NCBI GenBank assembly: GCA_048885865.1
Contig: JBHLLF010000002.1
Location: 96,001-160,000 of the forward strand
Source of the DNA: Candidatus Hermodarchaeota archaeon
Lineage (GTDB): Archaea; Asgardarchaeota; Thorarchaeia; Thorarchaeales; Thorarchaeaceae
Reading direction: 5' to 3'
DNA: 64,000 bases
Part shown: piece after piece, positions 8,750 to 52,140 of the stretch
Layout of the letters: the number at the start of each line of letters is the position of its first letter
How positions within the stretch are numbered: position 1 is the stretch's first letter
Translations under genes and position numbers: made by a program
Notes under the pieces: generated by a model
Told to the model about the DNA's origin: nothing
The model's database searches: none
Seen by the model: only the letters and a program-made list of their open reading frames with translations

Positions 8750-10801
8750 ATGAGTTCAAAGGAGAAGAAATCCAAAAAGGCGAAGAAGAAATCTTCCCCT
8801 GGAAAAAAGACTACTACGGATTCAGTCGCTGCTGGAGCCGGAGCAGGGGATATTCGCCAGGGTACCATTGCCAAGTTCATGCGGAAAAGAACTCAGCTAG
8901 TGGGCTTTGAGACTGGTTTAAACAAGCATACCCAATTTGCAATCGAGTTCCTAGATAACGCAATTGACGCAGTGGAAAGCTGGTGGTGGAAGACTGGCAG
9001 ACATCCACGACTTGATGATCAATTGGATCCCAAGTATGTCGAAGAGATTCGAACAAAGCTTGAGGGAACCCTTCATGACTCAATTGCCCTTAGTAAGAAG
9101 CTTGAGAAGGATGTACGAGAGGGCAATGAAGTTGAAATTCCGCCACGACGGAGAGAAACTCTGCAGGACCGCCTTACAGACTTCAGGAAGTTTGTGGTTC
9201 CGTTTCGAGGCATGATTAACAGACGAGAGCCCCTGTGCGTCATTCAACTTACTGAGGTTCAGATGCCTGACCTAGTCCCGCTTGATGATGAAGAGGGATT
9301 CAAAGTCTACGAATTCATATGCTTTGATAATGGAGTAGGCATGGTTTCTTCAGATTTGGAGAAATTTGGAATCTACCTCGCCTCAAGCAAGTCCGAAAAA
9401 CTAAGGCAGACACGAGGCAGTCAGGGATTTGGTGCTCCTTCAGCCTTTAGCGACGCTCAGAATACAACTGGTAAGCCCATATTCACTATATCGAAGCGGT
9501 TCAACGGCAAAGAAGCCACCGTCACCGATTTCTATACAACTACTGCAAACACAAAGGAATATGTAAGTGGCCCAATCGACATGGAGCTTCCGTTTGAGCA
9601 TGGGACCTATATCAAACTCAACTATCTGAATATCCAGTATCGGCGTGGATATGCTGATACCTACTGTGAGATGGCATCATTGCTCAACTCTCACGTGACC
9701 ATTGTTTTCATCGATCCCTACGGGACAGTACACATCTATCCCAGAAGAGTGAAGGACTTTCCTGCTGAGCCGAAGTACGCTCAGCCTCATCCAGCAAGCA
9801 TCCGTATTGGTGAGTTTCAAGACCTACTTAGAGAATCTCCAGAGCCAGATTTGCGAAGCTTCCTAACCAAAGCCTTTGTGAGGTTGAGTGGAAACAAGGC
9901 AAAGACCATTATTGGGAATGCAAACAAGGAATTGCGTAGGCGACATCAGGATACACTAAGCCCTAAGACTCCTACAGACTCGCTCTCAAAGATGGAGATA
10001 GAATTGCTCTACAAGGCATTCTCTGGAGAGGACTACATAGCACCACCAACAGACACAGTAGTCCCAGTTGGAGAAGAGGTATTTGAGCAGACTATCCACA
10101 TGGCTTATGAGCCAGACTTCGCTACAGCAGTTACGAGAAAACCTACCTCTGGAAAAGGCCTCTCTTTTGCTGTTGAGGTGTGTATTGCGTATGGAGGGAG
10201 TATCAAACCCGCAACTTCTGCCCCAATGGTTCTGTGGCGGTTTGTGAACCGTGTTCCAAAGCTCAGAGACAACAGTGACTGCGCAACTTGGAAGGCAACC
10301 ACCTCGGTTAATTGGAAGAACTACAAGGTGCAGACCTTTGACAATGGCATTCCCCGAGGACCCATTATGGTGTTTATTCATGTGGCTGGAGCATACGTTC
10401 ACGTGATGTTCAAGGGACAGAGCAAGCAAGCACTAGCAGAAGATGAGGTGCTGCTACGTGAGATTAAGTTGGCTCTCGAAGATGCAGGTAGAAGATTTAG
10501 ACGCTTCATTACAAGACGTGAAACAGCCAAGCGAAAGGCAAAGCGTGCAGGAATTCTTGCTATGTATGCTGACCAGTTTTCGCAGAGCCTCGCCGCAATC
10601 GCAAATGATGGAAGGAAGAAACCATTGTTTGATGCTGAGATTGTTGCAAGGAAGATTCGTGACTCAATTACCGGGTTTGAAACTGCAGATGACCAAGAGG
10701 AAACTGAAACAGATGCAAGAGGTACTGATCTCGTTGCCGATGTTCCTCTTGGGGATGGCGATGAAGACTTCATTGAAGTATCAGTGGATGGTGGCGATTA
10801 A
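8750..10801 (+). CDS. top6B: DNA topoisomerase VI subunit B (divergent, with insertion in the GHKL domain)
   Basis: GHKL motifs EFLDNAIDA, DNGVGM, TRGSQGFG; PHP motif; RFVNRVP transducer; stop overlaps top6A start. Confidence 0.92.
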   Translation: MSSKEKKSKKAKKKSSPGKKTTTDSVAAGAGAGDIRQGTIAKFMRKRTQLVGFETGLNKHTQFAIEFLDNAIDAVESWWWKTGRHPRLDDQLDPKYVEEIRTKLEGTLHDSIALSKKLEKDVREGNEVEIPPRRRETLQDRLTDFRKFVVPFRGMINRREPLCVIQLTEVQMPDLVPLDDEEGFKVYEFICFDNGVGMVSSDLEKFGIYLASSKSEKLRQTRGSQGFGAPSAFSDAQNTTGKPIFTISKRFNGKEATVTDFYTTTANTKEYVSGPIDMELPFEHGTYIKLNYLNIQYRRGYADTYCEMASLLNSHVTIVFIDPYGTVHIYPRRVKDFPAEPKYAQPHPASIRIGEFQDLLRESPEPDLRSFLTKAFVRLSGNKAKTIIGNANKELRRRHQDTLSPKTPTDSLSKMEIELLYKAFSGEDYIAPPTDTVVPVGEEVFEQTIHMAYEPDFATAVTRKPTSGKGLSFAVEVCIAYGGSIKPATSAPMVLWRFVNRVPKLRDNSDCATWKATTSVNWKNYKVQTFDNGIPRGPIMVFIHVAGAYVHVMFKGQSKQALAEDEVLLREIKLALEDAGRRFRRFITRRETAKRKAKRAGILAMYADQFSQSLAAIANDGRKKPLFDAEIVARKIRDSITGFETADDQEETETDARGTDLVADVPLGDGDEDFIEVSVDGGD

Positions 10802-12954
10802 TGGCTCGCAAAAAGAAGTCCGAGAAGACTGAAACCATCCAAGAAACCCTTGGAGACCTCGTCGAAACCAAGAAGAAGCCAACAAAGAAGACCACGAAGA
10901 AAGCAACCTCCAAGGACTCTAAAAAGCCTGCAAAAGCGGCCGCCAAACCCAAAACCAAGACCAAACGCAAGAAGCCTGCCTCCAAAAAGGAGAAGCCATC
11001 CGAGAAACCCGCAAAGAAGCCTGCCGAAAAACCAGCTGCCGATGTGGCTCTCGAAGAATCTGGACTATCACTGAGGCTCTTGCCTGGTGTAGGTCAGAAA
11101 TTGGAAGAGAGACTCAAAGCCGCAAAGTATGACACAGTTGAGCAGATATCCAAGTCTCGGTCAAAGAGCATGGCAAGTAGGGTTGATGGTCTAAGCTTGT
11201 CAGGCGCCAAGAAACTGATAGATGCGGCAAAAGAATTGCTTAAGGGTGAAGCAAAGGGCGTCGTGATTGAGGAACCTTCGGCTGCCGAGGCCGATGTCGT
11301 TGATGATAGTCCAGAAACTAGACTCAAGCTAACTGATTTGCCCGGAGTTGGTGGAAAACTTGCTAAAGAACTTGAACGTTCCGGCTACAATACAGTGGCA
11401 AGATTGTCACGTTCTAGACCAAGCTCAGTAGCCAAAGTCGTTGACGGGCTAAGTCTAAAGAAGGCAACAACCCTTGTTGATGCTGCTATTGAACTCATCC
11501 GCGAAGCCGAGATGATTGCTATCTCTGAAACCATCGCTCCAAAGCCTGCCCCACCGGATGAGCCAAGGAAGGTGGAGGAACCGCCAGAGGTAAAACCTGA
11601 GAAGAAGGATGAACCAAAGCCTGAGAAGAAGGAACCACCAAAGGAAGCTCCGAAGAAGCCTACGATACCGAAAAAGCCGAAAAAACCTGAAAAGGAACCA
11701 GAAATCGATGTCCCTAAAAAGACAAAAGCGAAGAAGAAGAAGTCTGGTCTCCCCGTTCCCGATGCAGTAAAGGCCCTTGAAAAAGAAATGAAACGGAAGT
11801 GGAAGGCGGCTGAGAAACGCAAGCTCGCAATTGAGGCAGGAGAGCTTCCAGAGGAAGAGATTGAACCTCTGAAAGAAACTGTGGAGGTTGTTGGCCTTAC
11901 TTCTAATCAAACACAAGACACACTCGTGGATGTCGCAATGGAAGTCCTTAATGAGGCCATGTTAACTGGACGACCAGCTTTTGAGATTCCTAGCAGATCA
12001 AGTGATAATATCGTCTGGGATGAAATCAGAGACCTGCTTCTACTGGGGATGAAGACAGTTGCTCGACCCTACCATTCTCTTGCTTCAGTGGTAGATGCCA
12101 CCAGAACCGCAAGGGTCATGGAGATAGTCTTCCAACTCTTGAAGTCCAATCTGCATGCGACTAAACGAGAGGTCTTCTATAGTGATGTCAATCTGTTTCG
12201 TGAGCAAAAGAGGAGTGACAAGATTATCGAGGATGTAGCTTCTATGCTGCACACGACGCGTGACAGCATTCATGTAGTTGCTTCGGCTCGAGGTTCTGCG
12301 ATGGGAAGAGTTGTGATTCGCGATGGTGGTGACACAATTGATCTAACTCGAATGGGAACCGGCGGTTGGGCAATCACTCCCTTCTTGGATCAAGTTGAGA
12401 TTTTAGAGAGCGATGCCGAGTTCATACTGCTCTCTGAGAAAGATGCAGCAGTTATGCGATTGGCAGAGGCAAAGTATTGGAATAGGCAGCCATGCATAGT
12501 ATTGACAGGAAAAGGTTCAGGTGACATTGCAACTCGTGCCTTCCTACGTATGCTGGTGAAGGAACTGGAGATTCCCGCGTTCGCCTTAGTCGACTCAGAT
12601 CCTTATGGGCATTACATATACTCCGTCTTTCTGCGAGGTAGCAAGAGACTAAGCTATGAGTCTCCCTTCATTGCCACTCCTGAGTTGAAGCTTCTAGGCG
12701 TCCTGAGTCGTGACCTTGAGGAATATAACATTCCAAAATCTGTCAGGATACCAATGGAGCCAACTGACATCAAACGTGTCAGGGACATGCTCAACGAACC
12801 ATTCGTGCAGGCAAACAAAGCATGGGTGAAAGACCTGAAACTCATGTTAAAGCTCAAGGAGAAAGCAGAGATTCAGGCATTCGCGAGCCACAGCTTCGAG
12901 TACCTCACTGATGACTATTTGCCTCGCAAGCTAGAAACAGGGGATTGGATTTAA
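10801..12954 (+). CDS. top6A: DNA topoisomerase VI subunit A (Spo11 family) with a ~360-aa N-terminal extension (Lys-rich, 2x HhH, Pro/Glu/Lys linker)
   Basis: KREVFY catalytic Tyr, SEKDA and DSDPYG Toprim motifs, KAEIQAF C-terminal motif. Confidence 0.93.
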   Translation: MARKKKSEKTETIQETLGDLVETKKKPTKKTTKKATSKDSKKPAKAAAKPKTKTKRKKPASKKEKPSEKPAKKPAEKPAADVALEESGLSLRLLPGVGQKLEERLKAAKYDTVEQISKSRSKSMASRVDGLSLSGAKKLIDAAKELLKGEAKGVVIEEPSAAEADVVDDSPETRLKLTDLPGVGGKLAKELERSGYNTVARLSRSRPSSVAKVVDGLSLKKATTLVDAAIELIREAEMIAISETIAPKPAPPDEPRKVEEPPEVKPEKKDEPKPEKKEPPKEAPKKPTIPKKPKKPEKEPEIDVPKKTKAKKKKSGLPVPDAVKALEKEMKRKWKAAEKRKLAIEAGELPEEEIEPLKETVEVVGLTSNQTQDTLVDVAMEVLNEAMLTGRPAFEIPSRSSDNIVWDEIRDLLLLGMKTVARPYHSLASVVDATRTARVMEIVFQLLKSNLHATKREVFYSDVNLFREQKRSDKIIEDVASMLHTTRDSIHVVASARGSAMGRVVIRDGGDTIDLTRMGTGGWAITPFLDQVEILESDAEFILLSEKDAAVMRLAEAKYWNRQPCIVLTGKGSGDIATRAFLRMLVKELEIPAFALVDSDPYGHYIYSVFLRGSKRLSYESPFIATPELKLLGVLSRDLEEYNIPKSVRIPMEPTDIKRVRDMLNEPFVQANKAWVKDLKLMLKLKEKAEIQAFASHSFEYLTDDYLPRKLETGDWI

Positions 12955-13962: not shown

Positions 13963-15195
13963 CTAGGCCTTTCGAATCTTCTTATCTAGGCCTTTGAGCC
14001 TCTTGCTGTCCTCGCCCTCTCGATATCTTTGCGCAGCTTCTTGATACTTTGTGAGTGCCTTTCGTGTCTGACCAGCCTTTACTAGTTCATCCCCCTCATC
14101 CTCAAGGACCTTCCCCCATTCAACATAGCAGTCACGGACCTTTTCCGAGCACTTCGCTCTCTTCTTGGCATCTGTTGAAAACATGTATAATTCTCTGGCC
14201 TTTCGGAATTGAACAATCGCCCATTCGTACTCATTTGATTTTCTATGATTCTCAGCCTGTTCAAAGTGATCGTTGGCCATCGCATCGTAGCCTTCATCGA
14301 TCATCTTGGTGGCATCGGCAATAGCTTTCTCATTGGCAGCTCTCTCAAAGAGCTTCTTAGCCATCTCAAATGTTTCAATTGCAGGCTCGAATTCTTTAGC
14401 TTCCAGTTTCCTAAAACCGTCTTCCATTCTTGCTTTGCCCATCGCTTCGTAGACATAGCCGGGATACTCAAACCCGTCACCAGATATGGAGAAACCACAA
14501 TTAGGACACTCCGGTGTATCAAGCTCAGGCATTGGAGTCGTCACTGCAATCTTCTTGGGCGTTCCAACAACAGTGTCAATGAAATCCTTTGAGGTTACGC
14601 CTCTCCCGCCAGGGAACAGGTGAGTGACTGCATCTCTCGTAGGATTGTCTTTACCTTCAGGAAACAGATGGTCAAAGACCTCTACCGGGTGGACTTCCAT
14701 CTCTTCCGACATTACTCGAGGTGGTGAAACCTCTTTGAATGGCATTCCTACCTTTATCTCGGGGTCCATCCCCTCAACTTCCCAGCTCAAATCAGAGCTA
14801 CTTCCTGCGGTTTCTTCAGGTACACTATCAGGAACTGGCTCTGGCGCAGCTGCTTCTTCGGTGGTTGATTCAACCAGCTTCTCATCAACTTCCCAGGACA
14901 GGTCTTCATTAGTGGATTTCGGTGCCGCTGATGGTGGAGCTTCTTCTACTACCGGCGCATCAACATCTGGGAGCTCAGTGTCTGGCAAGATTTCTAGCTC
15001 TGCGGGGGGCTCGCCAAGGTCTGGAACGTCATCGAGTTCAGAAACCTCTGGTAGAACATCCTTGCTTGCTTCTGAGGTCGTAGGTACATGTCCATTTGGT
15101 AGTCTGTTTCCACAACCCATACAGAAGGTTGAGCCCCTACGACTGCGTCTTCCACATTCCGGACATTCGACACTTCCTTCCATAATTCTACCCAC
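13963..15195 (-). CDS. Zinc-ribbon, acidic low-complexity and TPR/SNAP-like helical repeat protein
   Basis: CPECG..CMGCG N-terminus, Pro/Glu-rich middle, CPNCG, then A-x-x-x-F/Y-x-x-A helical repeats. Confidence 0.75.
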   Translation of the reverse strand: MGRIMEGSVECPECGRRSRRGSTFCMGCGNRLPNGHVPTTSEASKDVLPEVSELDDVPDLGEPPAELEILPDTELPDVDAPVVEEAPPSAAPKSTNEDLSWEVDEKLVESTTEEAAAPEPVPDSVPEETAGSSSDLSWEVEGMDPEIKVGMPFKEVSPPRVMSEEMEVHPVEVFDHLFPEGKDNPTRDAVTHLFPGGRGVTSKDFIDTVVGTPKKIAVTTPMPELDTPECPNCGFSISGDGFEYPGYVYEAMGKARMEDGFRKLEAKEFEPAIETFEMAKKLFERAANEKAIADATKMIDEGYDAMANDHFEQAENHRKSNEYEWAIVQFRKARELYMFSTDAKKRAKCSEKVRDCYVEWGKVLEDEGDELVKAGQTRKALTKYQEAAQRYREGEDSKRLKGLDKKIRKA

Positions 15196-15289
15196 TGAGT
15201 CTTTATCCTACAGATTTGCGCAGTCAAGTCTGTTTTGACACTGTTGGGGTATCGCCAGTCCATATGAACAATCCTCGTACGGTTCAGGG

Positions 15290-15919
15290 TCAAACGTACA
15301 ATAGCCAATATGTAGGCAATGTAATCAAGATTCCAACCAAGACGCCCGCGATGGCTTGGGCTAGACTATGCTGTTTGAGCACAGTCCGTGACCAGATAAC
15401 TGCAGTCCAAAGAATAATGATAGGCCACGCAATCCATCCATACACAATAAGAAGTGCCGTCCCAGGGCCGCCAACACCAGCCCCATGTACCGACACCTTG
15501 GACTTGAGCGTGGTAATCATAATTCCAGAAGTAACAGTAAAATAGGCAGCTGAAAGCGTAGCGAGAATGAGACATTCAGCAAGTGAGAAGATTACATACA
15601 CTATACCATAGCATAGGAGAGAGAATACGAAAAACCTAGCCCTGGTTTCTCGTGAAGAAACATCCAGATCAACATGACCTCGCCAAGCAGATAGAATGAT
15701 TGGCACAATTGGAAGAACAACCATACCAGGAATGAGAATAAGAATGGCTGTTGTGGAATTGAGCACGGGACCAAGGCCTATTGGCGAAGAATACACCATA
15801 ATTAACCCGACATAAAGGTTGATGAGGGGTGCCGGCGTCAGTCTTGAGATTACTCTTGCAACCTGAACGCCGGCTCCAGCAATGTCAAGGCTCTCGTCGT
15901 TGTATCTCAGCGTACTCAT
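15290..15919 (-). CDS. PAP2-like membrane protein
   Basis: ~6 TM; KVSVH and WSRTVLKQHSLAQAIAG resemble the PAP2 C2/C3 motifs. Confidence 0.7.
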   Translation of the reverse strand: MSTLRYNDESLDIAGAGVQVARVISRLTPAPLINLYVGLIMVYSSPIGLGPVLNSTTAILILIPGMVVLPIVPIILSAWRGHVDLDVSSRETRARFFVFSLLCYGIVYVIFSLAECLILATLSAAYFTVTSGIMITTLKSKVSVHGAGVGGPGTALLIVYGWIAWPIIILWTAVIWSRTVLKQHSLAQAIAGVLVGILITLPTYWLLYV

Positions 15920-19084: not shown

Positions 19085-20011
19085 ATGTCTGCAGAATCCT
19101 TCAAGATATCAGATTTATCAAAATTCTATGGTCCAACTCTTGCGTTGGATAAAGTCACTGTTACAGCTCCTAAGAAAGCAGTAGGTTTGCTTGGCCCAAA
19201 CGGCGCTGGGAAGACTACACTTATTCGCATTTTGATGGGAATAATTCGGCACTCTTCGGGCTCAGGAACTGTTTTAGGATATGACTTCTGTGACTCAATC
19301 CAGGATATTAGGGATCACGTTGGATATTCCCCAGAGTTCACGCCAATGATTCCTGATGTAAGTGCTATGAAGTATGTTACCTTCATGGGGAAGCTATCAG
19401 GTCTTGCCTCTGTGGAGGCTGCGCAGCGAGCTCATGATACTTTGCATTATGTTGGCTTAGCTGAAGAGCGCTATCGACCGCTGCGCGAATTTAGCACTGG
19501 CATGATGCAAAAGTGCAAGCTCGCAGCGGCACTGGTTCATGATCCTGATCTGGTCATTCTGGATGAACCAACCGATGGACTTGACCCAACTGGCCGCCAG
19601 AATATGCTAGACCTGATTGAACGCTTGTACAAAGATGAAGGCAAGAGTCTAATCGTTTCATCTCATCTATTGTTTGATGTTGAGAAAGTATGCGACTGGG
19701 TCATGGTTTTGGGAAGAGGTCAGCTGGTGACAAGCGGCGACATGAGTAGCCTACTGGCTGACACCTCTGGGGCATTACGATTGAAGATAACTGGAGATTC
19801 TGAGTCATTCTCACGAAAACTAACCGCCAAGGGGCTAGAGGTTGAGGTGGATGGGCCCTTTATTGATGTGAAAAGGGGAAATGGCACCGAGATGACTATT
19901 CTTGAGGAAGTCAATAGAGACCCAACAGTGAGTCTTCGATATCTAGGGAGTAGAACGCGAACACTTGAAGATGTATTCATCTCGATTGTAGAGGGGAGGG
20001 AGCTCGGATGA
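19085..20011 (+). CDS. ABC transporter ATP-binding protein
   Basis: GPNGAGKT, FSTGM signature, ILDEP, SSH. Confidence 0.95.
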   Translation: MSAESFKISDLSKFYGPTLALDKVTVTAPKKAVGLLGPNGAGKTTLIRILMGIIRHSSGSGTVLGYDFCDSIQDIRDHVGYSPEFTPMIPDVSAMKYVTFMGKLSGLASVEAAQRAHDTLHYVGLAEERYRPLREFSTGMMQKCKLAAALVHDPDLVILDEPTDGLDPTGRQNMLDLIERLYKDEGKSLIVSSHLLFDVEKVCDWVMVLGRGQLVTSGDMSSLLADTSGALRLKITGDSESFSRKLTAKGLEVEVDGPFIDVKRGNGTEMTILEEVNRDPTVSLRYLGSRTRTLEDVFISIVEGRELG

Positions 20012-20985
20012 GTGGAGAAACATCTACCGAAGACACCTATATTCAGAAATTTGGCTTTAGGCGATTCACGGGTGTACGTCAGAATCGTTTGTATCGAATA
20101 ATCTCCGTAGCATGGTTTAATCTCATTGAAGCAATAAGACGCTCAGGATTCACCAAGATGCTTCTTGTATTCATGTTCTTCTCCATCCTGATTCAGGATG
20201 TTCTCATCATTGTCATTTCGTGGTTCCTTCCCTTCATTGGTGATCCGATGACAATCAATGATCTTTTTAGAGATGCATATGCTGACTCGGTTCTTGGCAT
20301 GGTTTCACTTGTCAACCGAATCACTGTTCTCGATTTCGGATTCATGCCATTCAATATATCATCTGTTGGAATCAGCTTCATCTGGCTACTACTTATGGCC
20401 ATTGTTGGAGGGGGTCTAATTGCAGATGATAGACTCCATCAAACAACGGAGGTGTACTTCTCAAGAATATCAAGACTTGAGTATGTAATTGGGAAGCTCA
20501 TGAGTCTAATTCTTTTCTCAACAATTGTGGTCGTGCTTCCTTCCATCATTCAGTACTTCCTCCTCTCCTACGGTCTTGAAACAGACCTTCTCGTCAACAT
20601 TGACTTGATGTTCTGGGGCATCGGGTTTACACTTTTGGCCGCGTTTTTGCTCAGTCTAATAATTCTGGCGATGTCTAGCTTCACAAAACGACGAGCTGTT
20701 GCAACACTCACGTTCTTCATTGCTGCTATTGTTATGTCGAGCTTCTACAGCGCAATTGGTTTCGGTCAAAGCGAATCTATGATTCTGCTGCTAGACTTTG
20801 TTGGCGCTATTGCGCTTCTAGGTGCCATGGCACTAGGATACGATTCGCTCGATATTAATGGCCGGGATATTTTCTTTAGCAATGGAATAGGAATAGAAGG
20901 GCCAATGGTTCTTGCTGTGGTTCTGCTGGTTCTTGTGCTTGGCATTATATCTCTAATGCTCACTTTGTTTCGGAGGGATAGCTAA
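20008..20985 (+). CDS. ABC-2 type permease
   Basis: Multi-TM; GGGLIADDR..YFSRISR.EYVIGK motif. Confidence 0.85.
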   Translation: MSGETSTEDTYIQKFGFRRFTGVRQNRLYRIISVAWFNLIEAIRRSGFTKMLLVFMFFSILIQDVLIIVISWFLPFIGDPMTINDLFRDAYADSVLGMVSLVNRITVLDFGFMPFNISSVGISFIWLLLMAIVGGGLIADDRLHQTTEVYFSRISRLEYVIGKLMSLILFSTIVVVLPSIIQYFLLSYGLETDLLVNIDLMFWGIGFTLLAAFLLSLIILAMSSFTKRRAVATLTFFIAAIVMSSFYSAIGFGQSESMILLLDFVGAIALLGAMALGYDSLDINGRDIFFSNGIGIEGPMVLAVVLLVLVLGIISLMLTLFRRDS

Positions 20986-21929
20986 TGTTCATCATAGATA
21001 TCGATGAAGCGTCCAAGCAATATGGCGAGGTCGTGGCTATCAGTCGATTCAACATGTCGGTCAAAGGTGGTTCAATCACAGGATTCGTTGGACCCAATGG
21101 TGCAGGAAAAACGACGACAATTCGCGTTATCACTGGACTGACAAAGCCGGACAGTGGTACAGTTAGTGTATATGGCGAGGATCCCTTCGACAATGTTGGC
21201 ATTAAGGAACGGATAGGGTACGTTTCTGAATATGATGATCTATATTCGTGGGCTACTGTACGAGATTCAGTCAAGATGCTAGCAAATATCAGCACACCAC
21301 GCAAAGCCGGCATCAATGAAGCTGTTGACAAGGCTATTTCGGATGTTGGGATGGCGAAGTTTGCAGATAGGAAGGTTTCGGCTCTCTCCAAGGGAATGAA
21401 GCAGAGAACCAAGATTGCAGCTGCACTGACTCACAAACCTTCTCTGCTAGTATTGGATGAACCTCTTAGTGGACTTGATCCACTGGGTCGTAGGAGAATC
21501 ATGAATCTCCTCAGACGACTCAATAGTGAGGAAGATGTCACGATTCTTATTTCGAGTCATGTTCTTGAAGAGCTCGAGCACCTAGCAAACAGGATTACTC
21601 TCATCCACAGAGGTCAGACAGTTGCAGAAGGAGACCCTGATCGAATCAGGAAGCTCCTGTACCAATACCCGCACGAGATTCAGTTCAAGTCGCTGACAGA
21701 AGATATGAAAAGAATTGCCAGTGGGCTTGTGAAGATTGAGGGGTTGGTTAAGTCGCTTACATTCATCGAGCAGACTACAGATCTGCTTGAATGTCGAGTA
21801 GTAACACCTCAGCCTGAGCAGTTCTATGATGAGCTCATTCGATTGGCTGTCGAGCAAAAGGCACCCATTATCCAATTGGACAGTCTATCTGAGAGTGTGG
21901 AAAGCCTGTTTGAATTCCTAGTATCATGA
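20985..21929 (+). CDS. ABC transporter ATP-binding protein
   Basis: GPNGAGKT, LSKGM, VLDEP, SSH. Confidence 0.95.
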   Translation: MFIIDIDEASKQYGEVVAISRFNMSVKGGSITGFVGPNGAGKTTTIRVITGLTKPDSGTVSVYGEDPFDNVGIKERIGYVSEYDDLYSWATVRDSVKMLANISTPRKAGINEAVDKAISDVGMAKFADRKVSALSKGMKQRTKIAAALTHKPSLLVLDEPLSGLDPLGRRRIMNLLRRLNSEEDVTILISSHVLEELEHLANRITLIHRGQTVAEGDPDRIRKLLYQYPHEIQFKSLTEDMKRIASGLVKIEGLVKSLTFIEQTTDLLECRVVTPQPEQFYDELIRLAVEQKAPIIQLDSLSESVESLFEFLVS

Positions 21930-22866: not shown

Positions 22867-23910
22867 ATGTCACCAAGAAAGAAGGCAGATGAAGAAGAAA
22901 CCGTAGATTATGAGGATTTCGAGGAAGACGAAATCGATGATGAATTTGTCGAGCTTGGCACCGAAGGAGAGTCAGGATTAGATGTCACTGATCTCCCGGG
23001 CGTAGGGCCAGCAATCGCAAAGCGCTTGTCCGAGGCTGGTTATAGGAGCGTTGAGGCAATTGCCGTAGCATCTCCATCTGAGCTTGCTGCAGCAGGGTCA
23101 ATTGGCGAAACAACATCTACAAAGATCATAAAGGCAGCACGCGAAATGCTCGATATTGGCTTTGAAACAGCAGACCTTCTTCTTGAAAGGCGAAGGACAG
23201 CGGGACGAATAAGCACCGGCTCTGCTGCACTTGACGAACTCTTCGGGGGAGGACTTGAAACCCAAAGCATTACAGAGATGTACGGTTCATTCAGATCTGG
23301 GAAGACACAAATGGCACATCAGCTGTGTGTCATGGTTCAAAGGCCCCAAAGCGATGGCGGATTGGATGCCACAGCCATTTATGTCGATACAGAGGGCACC
23401 TTCAGACCTGAGCGTCTTGTAGACATGGCTGAAGCTTATAGCATGGATAAGAAGAAGGTCCTGAAGAATGTTGTTTGGGCTCGCGCCTACAACTCTGACC
23501 ATCAAATCCTTCTATGCGACCAAGCAATGGAGATGGCACCCGAGAAGAATGCCCGGCTCCTGGTTGTTGACTCTGTTACAAGCCATTTCAGGGCCGAGTA
23601 CACAGGAAGAGGAACACTTGCCGCCAGACAGCAGAAGCTGAACAAGCATTTGCATCATCTCCAACGAGGTGCTGAGATTAACAACATGGCTGTCTATATC
23701 ACGAATCAAGTAATGGCACGACCAGATGCTTTCTTCGGAGACCCTACTGCTCCAGTTGGGGGTCATGTGCTTGCGCATGTTCCCCAGACGCGGTGTTATC
23801 TGCGAAAGTCAAAGGGAGAGAGGAGAATCTGCAGACTTGTAGACTCACCCAATCTTCCAGAGGGTGAAGCGGTCTTCACTGTCACAAAGGACGGAATACG
23901 CGACGTCTAA
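22867..23910 (+). CDS. radA: DNA repair and recombination protein RadA
   Basis: HhH N-domain, GFETA polymerisation motif, GSFRSGKTQ Walker [20 protein letters not shown]; upstream TTTTTATAT and GGAGG. Confidence 0.97.
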
Positions 23911-50527: not shown

Positions 50528-51601
50528 TTGGCCAAATTGGGAAAAATGAAGGCTGGGATTCTTTACGGACCTAGGGATCTCAGGGTTGAGGAACTTGATA
50601 TTCCAAGCCTCAAACCTGGTTGGGTCTTGATCAAGGTGCGAGCAGCTGGAATTTGTGGAAGCGATTTACATCTGTACAAAGAGAAGACATTCATTCCAAT
50701 ATCATCTGTGATTGGTGAAGGAATCTATGTTCCAGGTCATGAGCTTGCAGGTGAAATTCAGGAGCTAGGCGAGGGTGTCACTGACCTTCAGGTTGGCGAC
50801 AGAGTGGTTGTTGAGCCCACAGTCAACTGTGGCAAGTGTGATTGGTGTAGAACCGGTCTGTATAATTTATGTGAGAATTCAGGACTAATCGGGTTTTACT
50901 ACATTGGTGGACTAGCTGAGTTTGTTGTAGCCCCAGCAGAGAAGTGCTTCAAGATTTCAGAGAAAACCTCGTTTGAAGAAGCGGCTATGATGGACTGCGC
51001 TGCAGTTGCCGAACGGGCCATCCGACGCGCTAAGGTATCTAACGAAGACAGAGTGGCCATCCTAGGTTCTGGGACCATCGGTCTCTTTGCAACTCAGGGT
51101 GTTCTAGCAGCTGGAGCCCGAGAGGTCTTTGTCACTGGCACACACAAATTTCAGATTGAGGCTGCGAAACGCTTTGGAGCAGCCGCTGCTATTAACGCAA
51201 GGACTGAAAACGTGGTTGAGAAAATAATGGAATTAACTTCTGGAAAGGGGGTGGATAAGGTCATTGAGGCAGTTGGAGGAGAAGCACCTGTCTTGGATGA
51301 GGGCGTCACCATTCTTAGGAGGCGCGGCATTATTGTTGCGACTGGCATCTTCTTGAATCCAGTGCCTATCAATATGTTCAGCCTCATTACCAAAGAAGTC
51401 ACACTAACGGGCGCGTGGGGATATGCATATTGGACCCATCTAAAGGAATTCGCTGTGTCCTTAGAGTTATTGGAATCAGGGAAAATCGATGCTAAGTCCT
51501 TGATTACTCACAAATTCCCACTCGAAAAGGCATCAGAAGCTTTTGATATCGCTTTGGATAAGAAGAAATCACAGTCTATCAAGGTCCAGATTACCTTCTA
51601 A
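50528..51601 (+). CDS. Zn-dependent alcohol/polyol dehydrogenase (MDR)
   Basis: GICGSD, GHE, CGKCDWC..C structural Zn site, GSGTIG. Confidence 0.93.
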   Translation: MAKLGKMKAGILYGPRDLRVEELDIPSLKPGWVLIKVRAAGICGSDLHLYKEKTFIPISSVIGEGIYVPGHELAGEIQELGEGVTDLQVGDRVVVEPTVNCGKCDWCRTGLYNLCENSGLIGFYYIGGLAEFVVAPAEKCFKISEKTSFEEAAMMDCAAVAERAIRRAKVSNEDRVAILGSGTIGLFATQGVLAAGAREVFVTGTHKFQIEAAKRFGAAAAINARTENVVEKIMELTSGKGVDKVIEAVGGEAPVLDEGVTILRRRGIIVATGIFLNPVPINMFSLITKEVTLTGAWGYAYWTHLKEFAVSLELLESGKIDAKSLITHKFPLEKASEAFDIALDKKKSQSIKVQITF

Positions 51602-51621
51602 TCGAAAAATCATGAACTAAG

Positions 51622-52140
51622 GTGAAAGAGTTGTCTGACGAATTAAGCTGGGAGCTATGCAACGAACTTGTTGCAGGAGAGATAGCCACTAGATGCTTGA
51701 TTGTTTCCTATTTCGTTCACAGATTGCCTAGGAAGTATGGCGAAGAGATCCTGGAAGACATCAAGCAGGCTAACTATGATGCTGGATATGTGGCAGGAAA
51801 GAATGCAGCCAAGGCAGTTGGCAAGAATGACCTCAAGACTCTTGGTGAGCTATTTGGGGGCACGAAAGTCTTCAATCCAGAAATAATTGGACTTACTGAG
51901 GATAGGGCAGTTATTCATTGGCGTAGATGTCCAGTCCCAACTCTCGTTGCTACATTCGAAGAGATGGGCTTGACTGAAGATTATCTAGCGACCGTCTGTC
52001 CAATACTCGAGCTATTTGACAATGGATTCGTTGAGGGTTGGAATCCTGAGCTAGAAGCCCAGAATCCTACAGAGGTTGGAGAAACACATCTGCAAAAGGG
52101 TGGCGATTTCTGTACAGTTGTGATTGCCAAGAAGAGCTGA
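51622..52140 (+). CDS. ATC-hydrolase/V4R-like protein
   Basis: RCP...C...D.GF..GWNP....GGDFC pattern. Confidence 0.7.
   Translation: MKELSDELSWELCNELVAGEIATRCLIVSYFVHRLPRKYGEEILEDIKQANYDAGYVAGKNAAKAVGKNDLKTLGELFGGTKVFNPEIIGLTEDRAVIHWRRCPVPTLVATFEEMGLTEDYLATVCPILELFDNGFVEGWNPELEAQNPTEVGETHLQKGGDFCTVVIAKKS

Follow-up and report, generated by a model that had tools for sequence, protein, structure and literature searches.

Within a 64,000-nt stretch of DNA (hereafter the window; positions 96,001 to 160,000 of the forward strand of contig JBHLLF010000002.1, assembly GCA_048885865.1) from a Candidatus Hermodarchaeota archaeon placed by GTDB in the family Thorarchaeaceae, we found an operon for topoisomerase VI (Topo VI) whose A subunit, Top6A, carries a long N-terminal arm. 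On balance we think it probable that the product is a DNA- and clamp-tethered topoisomerase, that is, an intact Asgard-type Top6A bearing a family-specific flexible arm with a tip that resembles a PCNA-interacting peptide (PIP) box and a generic helix-hairpin-helix (HhH) tether. In such an enzyme, the two arms of the A2B2 assembly would hold Topo VI non-specifically on duplex DNA, and this tethering would make it more processive and more tolerant of salt and raise its concentration locally. Its tip may further bind PCNA, which would place this paralogue at or behind replication forks or on newly replicated duplex, and there the enzyme would relax or decatenate DNA; M. mazei Topo VI is described as a preferential decatenase in vitro in a work cited in a passage of PMC9665070. 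The arm would serve as a generic nucleic-acid tether rather than as a device specific to RadA or to recombination. We favour a tethered topoisomerase over a Spo11-like break-maker because the HhH domains are nearest to those found on the proteins eL32 and Rpo6 and because the ATPase motifs of the partner subunit, Top6B, are kept.

The fused gene, top6A (10801..12954; 717 aa), is the second of the two-gene operon and follows its partner top6B (8750..10801; 683 aa), both genes lying on the + strand, as do all window features given below. The original prediction had described Top6A as joined here to tandem HhH domains like those of the RadA N-terminus and to Lys-rich parts, and this fusion proved to be real, as judged from Pfam and NCBIfam matches and from the identities between the repeats. 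Its figure of ~360 extra residues is right in that an extension exists and needs shortening in extent, since residues 315-367 belong to an N-terminal segment shared with other Asgard orthologues, which leaves ~315 residues (1-314) as the lineage-specific part.

Read from its N-terminus, the arm begins with a PIP-box-like short linear motif (10828..10869; residues 10-23) with the sequence TIQETLGDLV, for which the family consensus is TVQxTLGxLV. This is followed by a basic disordered tract rich in Lys, Ala, Pro and Thr (10870..11055; residues 24-85), recognised by its composition and net charge (over residues 23-83, K 39%, A 18%, P 13%, T 11% and a net charge of +20). Two (HhH)2 domains come next, the first at 11062..11250 (residues 88-150, with hairpins LPGVG 94-98 and VDGLS 128-132) and the second at 11317..11514 (residues 173-238, with hairpins LPGVG 180-184 and VDGLS 214-218), separated by an acidic linker (11251..11316; residues 151-172) with a net charge of -6 and a predicted local distance difference test score (pLDDT) < 50. 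Beyond them lies a Pro/Glu/Lys-rich linker (11533..11742; residues 245-314; K 33%, P 27%, E 17%), again recognised by composition, which is kept among homologues with little conservation of the sequence itself. The arm then meets a conserved segment, SGLPVP...K..W..AE.R (11743..11835; residues 315-345), which was defined from the alignment of homologues and in which S315 and W334 are invariant (70/70 aligned homologues). The position of this segment matches the extra N-terminal helix that precedes the Top6B-interacting helix in Asgard and eukaryotic TopoVIA (PMC9665070), and it aligns partly with other Asgard N-termini. Of the histone-H1-like tail that had also been proposed, the K/A/P composition stands; Pfam matches of the Top6A protein down to E = 1 included no linker-histone globular domain (GH1/GH5), and homology to histone H1 was rejected, the likeness being compositional only.

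Scanning of the arm for HHH_5, a check put forward with the original prediction, gave a match of 45.2 bits (E 1.4e-11; cut-off 27 bits) in two stretches, the better of which spans residues 176-229, and residues 174-233 are also matched by the NCBIfam RadA models. Between the two repeats, at residues 86-148 and 172-234, identity is 51% over 63 aa (E 4e-18), and each is 35-37% identical (E 2e-9) to residues 35-95, the N-terminal (HhH)2 domain, of RadA encoded in the same window (radA, 22867..23910; 347 aa), so that the earlier observation of RadA-like repeats was correct. An AlphaFold2 model of residues 84-242, built on an alignment of 70 homologues, shows two five-helix bundles with a disordered linker between them (mean pLDDT 78.6, with 80-89 in domain 1 and 83-94 in domain 2), each copy having the LPGVG and VDGLS hairpins and the five helices of an (HhH)2 domain, and many residues of both domains and of the N-terminus are invariant among homologues. 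Foldseek searches with this model retrieved the N-domains of RadA/Rad51 (1pzn_A, root-mean-square deviation (rmsd) 1.2 Å over 54 columns; 2z43, rmsd 1.1 Å over 60), along with NusA and the HhH array of M. kandleri Topo V on DNA (8df9_B, 8df7_A). Taken over both domains at once, the TM-scores are low (0.3-0.36) owing to the disordered linker between them, and it is the superpositions of single domains that carry meaning. From their family membership, the Top6A domains would be of the type that binds the duplex backbone without sequence specificity.

A search of the genome with residues 84-242 revealed the same module in four other genes, encoding eL32, Rpo6, a membrane protein and RadA, with Pfam confirming HHH_5 on two of the four, eL32 and Rpo6. 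Identity of the Top6A domains is 46-48% with the eL32 module and 35-37% with RadA, and judged by these figures the eL32 module is their closest paralogue within the genome. The eL32 gene (contig C4, ~50917-51729, + strand) encodes an N-terminal HHH_5 (6.8e-12), a Lys/Pro/Glu linker and L32e (6.8e-34), and the Rpo6 gene (contig C32, ~14934-15611, + strand) encodes an N-terminal HHH_5 (2e-10) and a basic linker, its Rpb6 match of 24.8 bits lying slightly below the cut-off of 26; an HhH-type element on Thorarchaeota Rpo6 was noted in a 2026 paper (PMC13257274). The membrane protein (contig C26, ~19999-21198, - strand) is a multi-pass protein with a C-terminal (HhH)2-type domain whose identity is 30-32% with the Top6A domains and 40% with the module of eL32. 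Because it occurs also on eL32, Rpo6 and the membrane protein, the module looks to be a promiscuous nucleic-acid tether in the Thorarchaeial lineage, and by sequence comparison the description 'RadA-N-like' holds at the level of family and fold only. RadA mimicry or recruitment, considered as the leading idea, was abandoned on the same two grounds, the greater nearness of the HhH domains to eL32 than to RadA and the promiscuity of the module in this genome. The proposal that the extension adds DNA-binding or partner-recruiting modules thus stands in silico in the (HhH)2 domains, the polycationic tracts and the PIP-like tip, but its further part, targeting to RadA or to recombination sites, is not supported, as the HhH domains are closest to those of eL32 and Rpo6 and the gene shares an operon with an ATPase-intact Top6B.

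The tip is the most conserved part of the arm, with Q14, T16 and L17 present in 69/70 aligned homologues, and Q-x-T-L is kept also in variants with four to seven HhH domains and a shrunken basic tract. Against the canonical PIP consensus Q-x-x-[LIM]-x-x-[FYW]-[FYWL], Q14 and L17 fit and the residues at positions 7 and 8, L20 and V21, are non-aromatic, for which reason we call the tip PIP-like and not a canonical PIP box. Prediction of a complex between the PCNA of this genome (contig C12, 254 aa; 18-sequence alignment) and Top6A residues 1-45 (28 sequences), run together with three controls, gave a score of 0.73 as against 0.00-0.01 in the controls, and so passed a mark that is reached by 58/80 solved complexes and 2/110 mismatched pairs. 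At least 71% of the contacts agree between runs, the partner pLDDT is at least 54, and the modelled contacts bring peptide residues 10-23 to PCNA residues 38-47, 123-128, 227 and 243-250, which make up the canonical PIP groove (hydrophobic pocket, interdomain connecting loop and C-terminal tail). Because many PCNA-peptide complexes have been solved, such a score shows PIP-likeness rather than binding, and on this modelling the TVQxTLGxLV tip is a plausible PIP-box-like element for recruiting a partner. Docking on PCNA is a reasonable idea in light of an immunoprecipitation link of Pyrococcus Topo VI with PCNA/RFC, cited in a passage of PMC9665070. Elsewhere in the genome, clear PIP boxes lie at the C-termini of a Y-family polymerase (PolY, QSTLSEFF) and of two Fen1 proteins (QSSLTDFF and, in the second, QETLEQWL), at loci C1:175732-177060, C9:81425-82453 and C10:64706-65695, the two Fen1 copies matching the Fen1-1/Fen1-2 pair of Asgard archaea (PMC12680538).

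The catalytic core to which the arm is attached (11902..12951; residues 368-717) was delimited with Pfam, NCBIfam and alignments to 2zbk_A and 1d3y_A. It matches TP6A_N (PF04406; residues 434-492, E 1.6e-19) and TOP6A-Spo11_Toprim (PF21180; residues 541-711, E 1.4e-53, the full model length of 1-170), and the matches to NCBIfam Top6A models begin at ~residue 368. The 5Y-CAP domain has R456 and the catalytic Y460 in the motif KREVFY, which aligns with the catalytic Tyr region of 2zbk_A and 1d3y_A and whose Arg and Tyr columns are invariant across the Top6A alignment, and the Toprim metal site has E546 (LLSEKDA) and D598-x-D600 (VDSDPYG), so that the features that mark the Top6A superfamily, a 5Y-CAP with Tyr/Arg and a Toprim with Glu/DxD, are all found. 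The upstream Top6B matches Topo-VIb_trans (PF09239, 5.1e-42), keeping the transducer domain, and PRK04184/NF003218 (E 2.2e-101, 340 bits against a cut-off of 274). Alignment to M. mazei Top6B (2q2e_B) located intact GHKL boxes (N box EFLDNAIDA 66-74, G1 DNGVGM 193-198, G2 GSQGFG 223-228) as well as the switch-Lys region GQSKQA 556-561 and WKNY 522-525, and the pair therefore has what marks a Topo VI holoenzyme, an adjacent Top6B with Bergerat boxes, switch Lys and transducer. The two genes share a one-base stop/start overlap, TAATG (10799-10803), and GGTGG, a Shine-Dalgarno-like sequence, lies 7 nt upstream of the top6A start; given this overlap, we take top6A to be co-translated with top6B. 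As far as sequence can tell, the pair appears to be a type IIB topoisomerase with an ATPase-competent Top6B and a catalytically intact core, and by its motifs the operon arrangement is that of a topoisomerase and not of an ATPase-less Spo11-type complex.

Some traits of Top6B were considered alongside the arm. Its residues 1-22 (window 8750-8815) form a Lys-rich N-terminal tail (MSSKEKKSKKAKKK...), which is absent from the Top6B of the lineage whose Top6A carries seven HhH domains. A long Top6B (619-660 aa) also precedes the orthologous Top6A in other Asgard classes, and with the same N-terminal region present there, an insertion of ~95 residues between the N box and the G1 box was rejected as a lineage-specific trait. 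Likewise rejected was the Top6B sequence IRQGTIAKFM, PIP-like by eye, which is the conserved N-terminal strap of the GHKL domain, aligned with M. mazei SVAEFF and present in all Asgard Top6B compared.

The genome (3.58 Mb in 117 contigs, 87% complete, 5.3% contamination) holds three top6B-top6A operons, namely that of the window, one on contig C9 that is canonical (its Top6A has 349 aa) and one on contig C38 that is divergent (its Top6A has 402 aa), and most genomes of the window's family have two or three Top6A copies. Three Top6A/B pairs in Thorarchaeia were published in Nat Ecol Evol in 2025 (PMC12680538), in a paper that describes one conserved Asgard Top6A as sister to eukaryotic Top6A/Spo11 and the extra copies as related to other archaea, and whose main text does not mention the HhH fusion. 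Compared with the Top6A proteins of Odin-, Baldr-, Hel-, Loki- and Hodarchaeota, the window core shows 62-70% identity. The Spo11/Top6A phylogeny that had been called for, here a quick IQ-TREE maximum-likelihood tree of 68 rows with the eukaryotic rows recognised by their source names, placed the window core with the Asgard orthologues (Shimodaira-Hasegawa-like approximate likelihood ratio test, SH-aLRT, 99), joined this Asgard clade and eukaryotic TOP6A/SPO11 in one clade with a support of 100, and put the C9 and C38 copies among other archaeal Top6A, outside the Asgard/eukaryote clade. Searches of the three copies against the PDB agreed, with yeast Spo11 (8urq, E 2.2e-6) being detected by the window core only and the C9 copy scoring best with the M. 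jannaschii and M. mazei structures. The motif HATKRE-FY-DV-LF--Q, with no insertion after the catalytic Tyr, is common to the window core and the eukaryotic sequences and differs in C9 and C38. By homology, the fused gene is the conserved Asgard, eukaryote-type Top6A orthologue, in agreement with PMC12680538. In the tree, eukaryotes lie nearer to another branch than to the Thorarchaeial one, and no branch but the latter has the arm, which makes the arm uninformative on the origin of Spo11, and because it is a family-specific add-on the finding has no bearing on how Spo11 or meiosis arose.

The C38 Top6A (L003:1456-2661, - strand; P0206) has DMSPW in place of the Toprim metal motif DxDP[WY], and its metal site may be altered or lost. 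Its branch in the tree is very long, at 3.2 changes per column, and its gene follows a top6B of its own.

Surveying the fusion across Asgard revealed a narrow distribution. A Toprim search found the long form in 27/27 genomes sampled of the window's family (frames of 658-954 aa, and one of 527 aa), and a whole-genome search of 151 genomes of the phylum gave matches over most or all of the query length in genomes of the family as against matches starting at ~residue 320-380 in genomes outside it, whose frames are mostly 395-480 aa; in other Asgard genomes, the matched part of the query starts at ~323-350. Among these 151 genomes no HhH-bearing Top6A was found outside the window's family, and the fusion is thus confined in this survey to one Thorarchaeial family, the Thorarchaeaceae. 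A search of public proteins with residues 1-370 returned 87 proteins, nearly all labelled Thorarchaeota, mostly 700-860 aa long and with the same domain set.

Within the family, the arm varies in its parts. Two (HhH)2 copies are present in 73/79 long homologues and the others have 3, 4, 5 or 7; the basic tract measures 50-121 aa in homologues with two HhH domains versus 10-32 aa in those with four to seven, and in three of these last four proteins the Pro/Glu/Lys linker is also shorter (24-38 aa instead of ~75-90 aa). Because the copy number varies and the tract and linker shrink as copies rise, the HhH modules may be seen as interchangeable generic DNA-affinity modules, a view that fits these sequences. 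In a genome of a sister family within the same order (G112; L015:1088-4468, + strand), Top6A is 420 aa long with a Lys-rich N-terminus and no HhH, and its Top6B has a long Lys/Ser/Thr-rich N-terminal tail; since these tails occur there without HhH domains, basic tails on both subunits may predate the acquisition of the HhH domains. Heimdall-type Asgard Top6A proteins (G041, L012:1065-2483, - strand; G026, L011:999-2411, - strand) are ~471 aa long with a different N-terminal add-on, which in G041 is a ubiquitin-like domain (Rad60-SLD 5.5e-7, ubiquitin 2.9e-6). In G026 the open reading frame upstream of Top6A exceeds 1095 aa, and the part of it that was examined gave only a RAD51D_N-type HhH match.

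We weighed these observations against four other explanations. The arm might be neutral or artefactual, arising from a mis-called start or a chimaeric contig or being a functionless disordered spacer, and it is true that most of it is of low complexity and that the genome is metagenome-assembled with the incompleteness and contamination given above. The artefact part of this explanation is refuted, as the long frames run uninterrupted without internal stops in 27/27 independent assemblies and the start overlaps the top6B stop with GGTGG upstream, and an assembly artefact or wrong start was rejected on these observations; with the many invariant residues in both HhH domains and at the N-terminus added, we find the explanation as a whole scarcely credible. 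A second reading, close to the spirit of the original prediction, is that the HhH domains mimic or recruit RadA and that this paralogue makes programmed double-strand breaks that feed recombination. It draws on the grouping of the core's Asgard clade with eukaryotic TOP6A/SPO11, on the detection of yeast Spo11 by this copy only, on the Pfam family shared by the HhH domains and the RadA N-domain, and on radA lying 10 kb away in the window. The RadA N-domain, though, is a DNA-binding (HhH)2 domain and not a RadA-binding one, the Top6A domains are nearer to eL32 with the module found on Rpo6 and a membrane protein as well, and 10 kb amounts to no operon link. With the gene also being orthologous to the single conserved Top6A of other Asgard classes and coupled to a Top6B with intact ATP boxes, and with the Thorarchaeial branch not being the closest to eukaryotes, we regard a break-maker as very improbable.

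Two further readings keep the arm functional and differ from ours in what it does. The protein could be chromatin-architectural, an abundant binder of nucleoid or histone fibres (by bridging or in condensates) whose topoisomerase activity is secondary or regulated by chromatin, as would suit a basic tract near linker-histone tails in composition and the Lys-rich tails that occur also on the window's Top6B and on both subunits of the sister-family genome. It is at odds with the lack of a linker-histone globular domain, with a basic tract that is dispensable in lineages with four to seven HhH domains, and with the conservation of all catalytic and ATPase residues; we consider it improbable, and note that the present computations do not tell it apart from simple tethering. 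Alternatively, the arm may be a DNA tether only, its TVQxTLG tip binding some other partner or acting as an intramolecular or regulatory element or as a degradation or modification signal. The missing PIP aromatics and a position unlike that of the genome's C-terminal PIP boxes speak for this, and the prediction may have passed through likeness alone in a family with many solved complexes. Such a tip would have to be reconciled with a Q-x-T-L core that is nearly invariant even in variants without the basic tract, and with modelled contacts that fall precisely on the PIP groove with controls near zero, and we judge this option unlikely.

The reading that we prefer, a topoisomerase tethered to DNA and to the clamp, also faces points that weigh against it. 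The DNA binding of the arm, its effect on activity and its binding to PCNA are all things that we infer, and with three Topo VI paralogues in the cell any of them could be the housekeeping enzyme. The relation between HhH number and tract length rests on six related proteins with more than two domains. As to the clamp, the motif has L-V where a PIP box has its aromatic pair (F-F or W-L), it is N-terminal in a genome whose clear PIP boxes are C-terminal, and solved PCNA-peptide structures already known to the predictor can give the complex model a high score.

Our literature searches found no paper that describes the arm, its variable number of HhH domains or its PIP-like tip; already known are Topo VI and its Asgard paralogues, the extra N-terminal helix of TopoVIA and HhH domains as such, and database names already flag the fused proteins as 'helix-hairpin-helix domain-containing protein'. 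Topo VI is the ancestor type of Spo11 and is essential in archaea and plants, and how it is recruited to its substrates is poorly understood. The genome described here presents a natural experiment, with a eukaryote-like Topo VI that has its own tether and a candidate clamp tip beside two unadorned paralogues. The case bears on whether tethering limits Topo VI activity and offers a first handle on how work is divided between the three Asgard Topo VI pairs reported in 2025. Should the tip bind PCNA, no type IIB topoisomerase before this one would have had a replication-clamp link built in, and the enzyme would, if our reading is true, be a prokaryotic forerunner of the tethers that act in trans to link eukaryotic Topo VI (BIN4/RHL1) and Topo II to chromatin and replication. 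A broader and more tentative idea, which we hold as possible though rather doubtful, is that Asgard archaea have repeatedly made their eukaryote-like Topo VI clamp-coupled and self-tethering, by the A-subunit arm in Thorarchaeaceae and by other add-ons, such as the ubiquitin-like domain on A, in the Heimdall group.

Placed beside known systems, the fused protein resembles the conserved Asgard Top6A (PMC12680538; PMC9665070) in the identity of its core, its clade, its HATKRE motif, part of its N-terminal segment and its long upstream Top6B, and differs in that the others are 395-480 aa long and have no PIP-like tip, basic tract or HhH. With canonical archaeal Top6A (S. shibatae 2zbk_A, M. jannaschii 1d3y_A, M. 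mazei 2q2e_A) it shares the 5Y-CAP/Toprim architecture, the catalytic Tyr, Arg, Glu and DxD and the operon with Top6B, whereas those proteins are 369-389 aa at full length (2q2e_A, 2zbk_A) and have no N-terminal modules, the shortest solved canonical chain being 1d3y_A with 301 aa. Its likeness to the RadA/Rad51 N-domain lies in the HHH_5 fold, the sequence identity and the close superposition on 1pzn and 2z43, in contrast to which Top6A has neither the recombinase core nor the polymerisation motif and finds its nearest paralogues in eL32 and Rpo6. The archaeal PCNA clients Fen1 and PolY share with the tip the Q-x-T-L core and, by prediction, the same groove, unlike them the Top6A tip having an aliphatic L-V and being N-terminal.

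M. kandleri Topo V is likewise a topoisomerase with tandem (HhH)2 domains, found here as a Foldseek match (8df9_B/8df7_A), and has a similarly expandable copy number (2-7 in the Top6A arm). Its catalytic domain is unrelated (type IC versus IIB), its array is C-terminal instead of N-terminal, and the basic disordered tracts and the PIP-like tip are found only on the Top6A arm. The HhH arrays of Topo V were reportedly shown by Pavlov and colleagues in 2002 to confer salt resistance and processivity. Eukaryotic Topo II has a Lys-rich C-terminal domain. In plants, the Topo VI partners BIN4 and RHL1 are accessory DNA-binding parts that act in trans (PMC9665070). With both, the analogy is one of function, in that added basic parts that bind DNA hold a type II enzyme at chromatin or replication sites, and the difference is that we found no sequence relation and that the arm of Top6A is built into the enzyme rather than supplied in trans.

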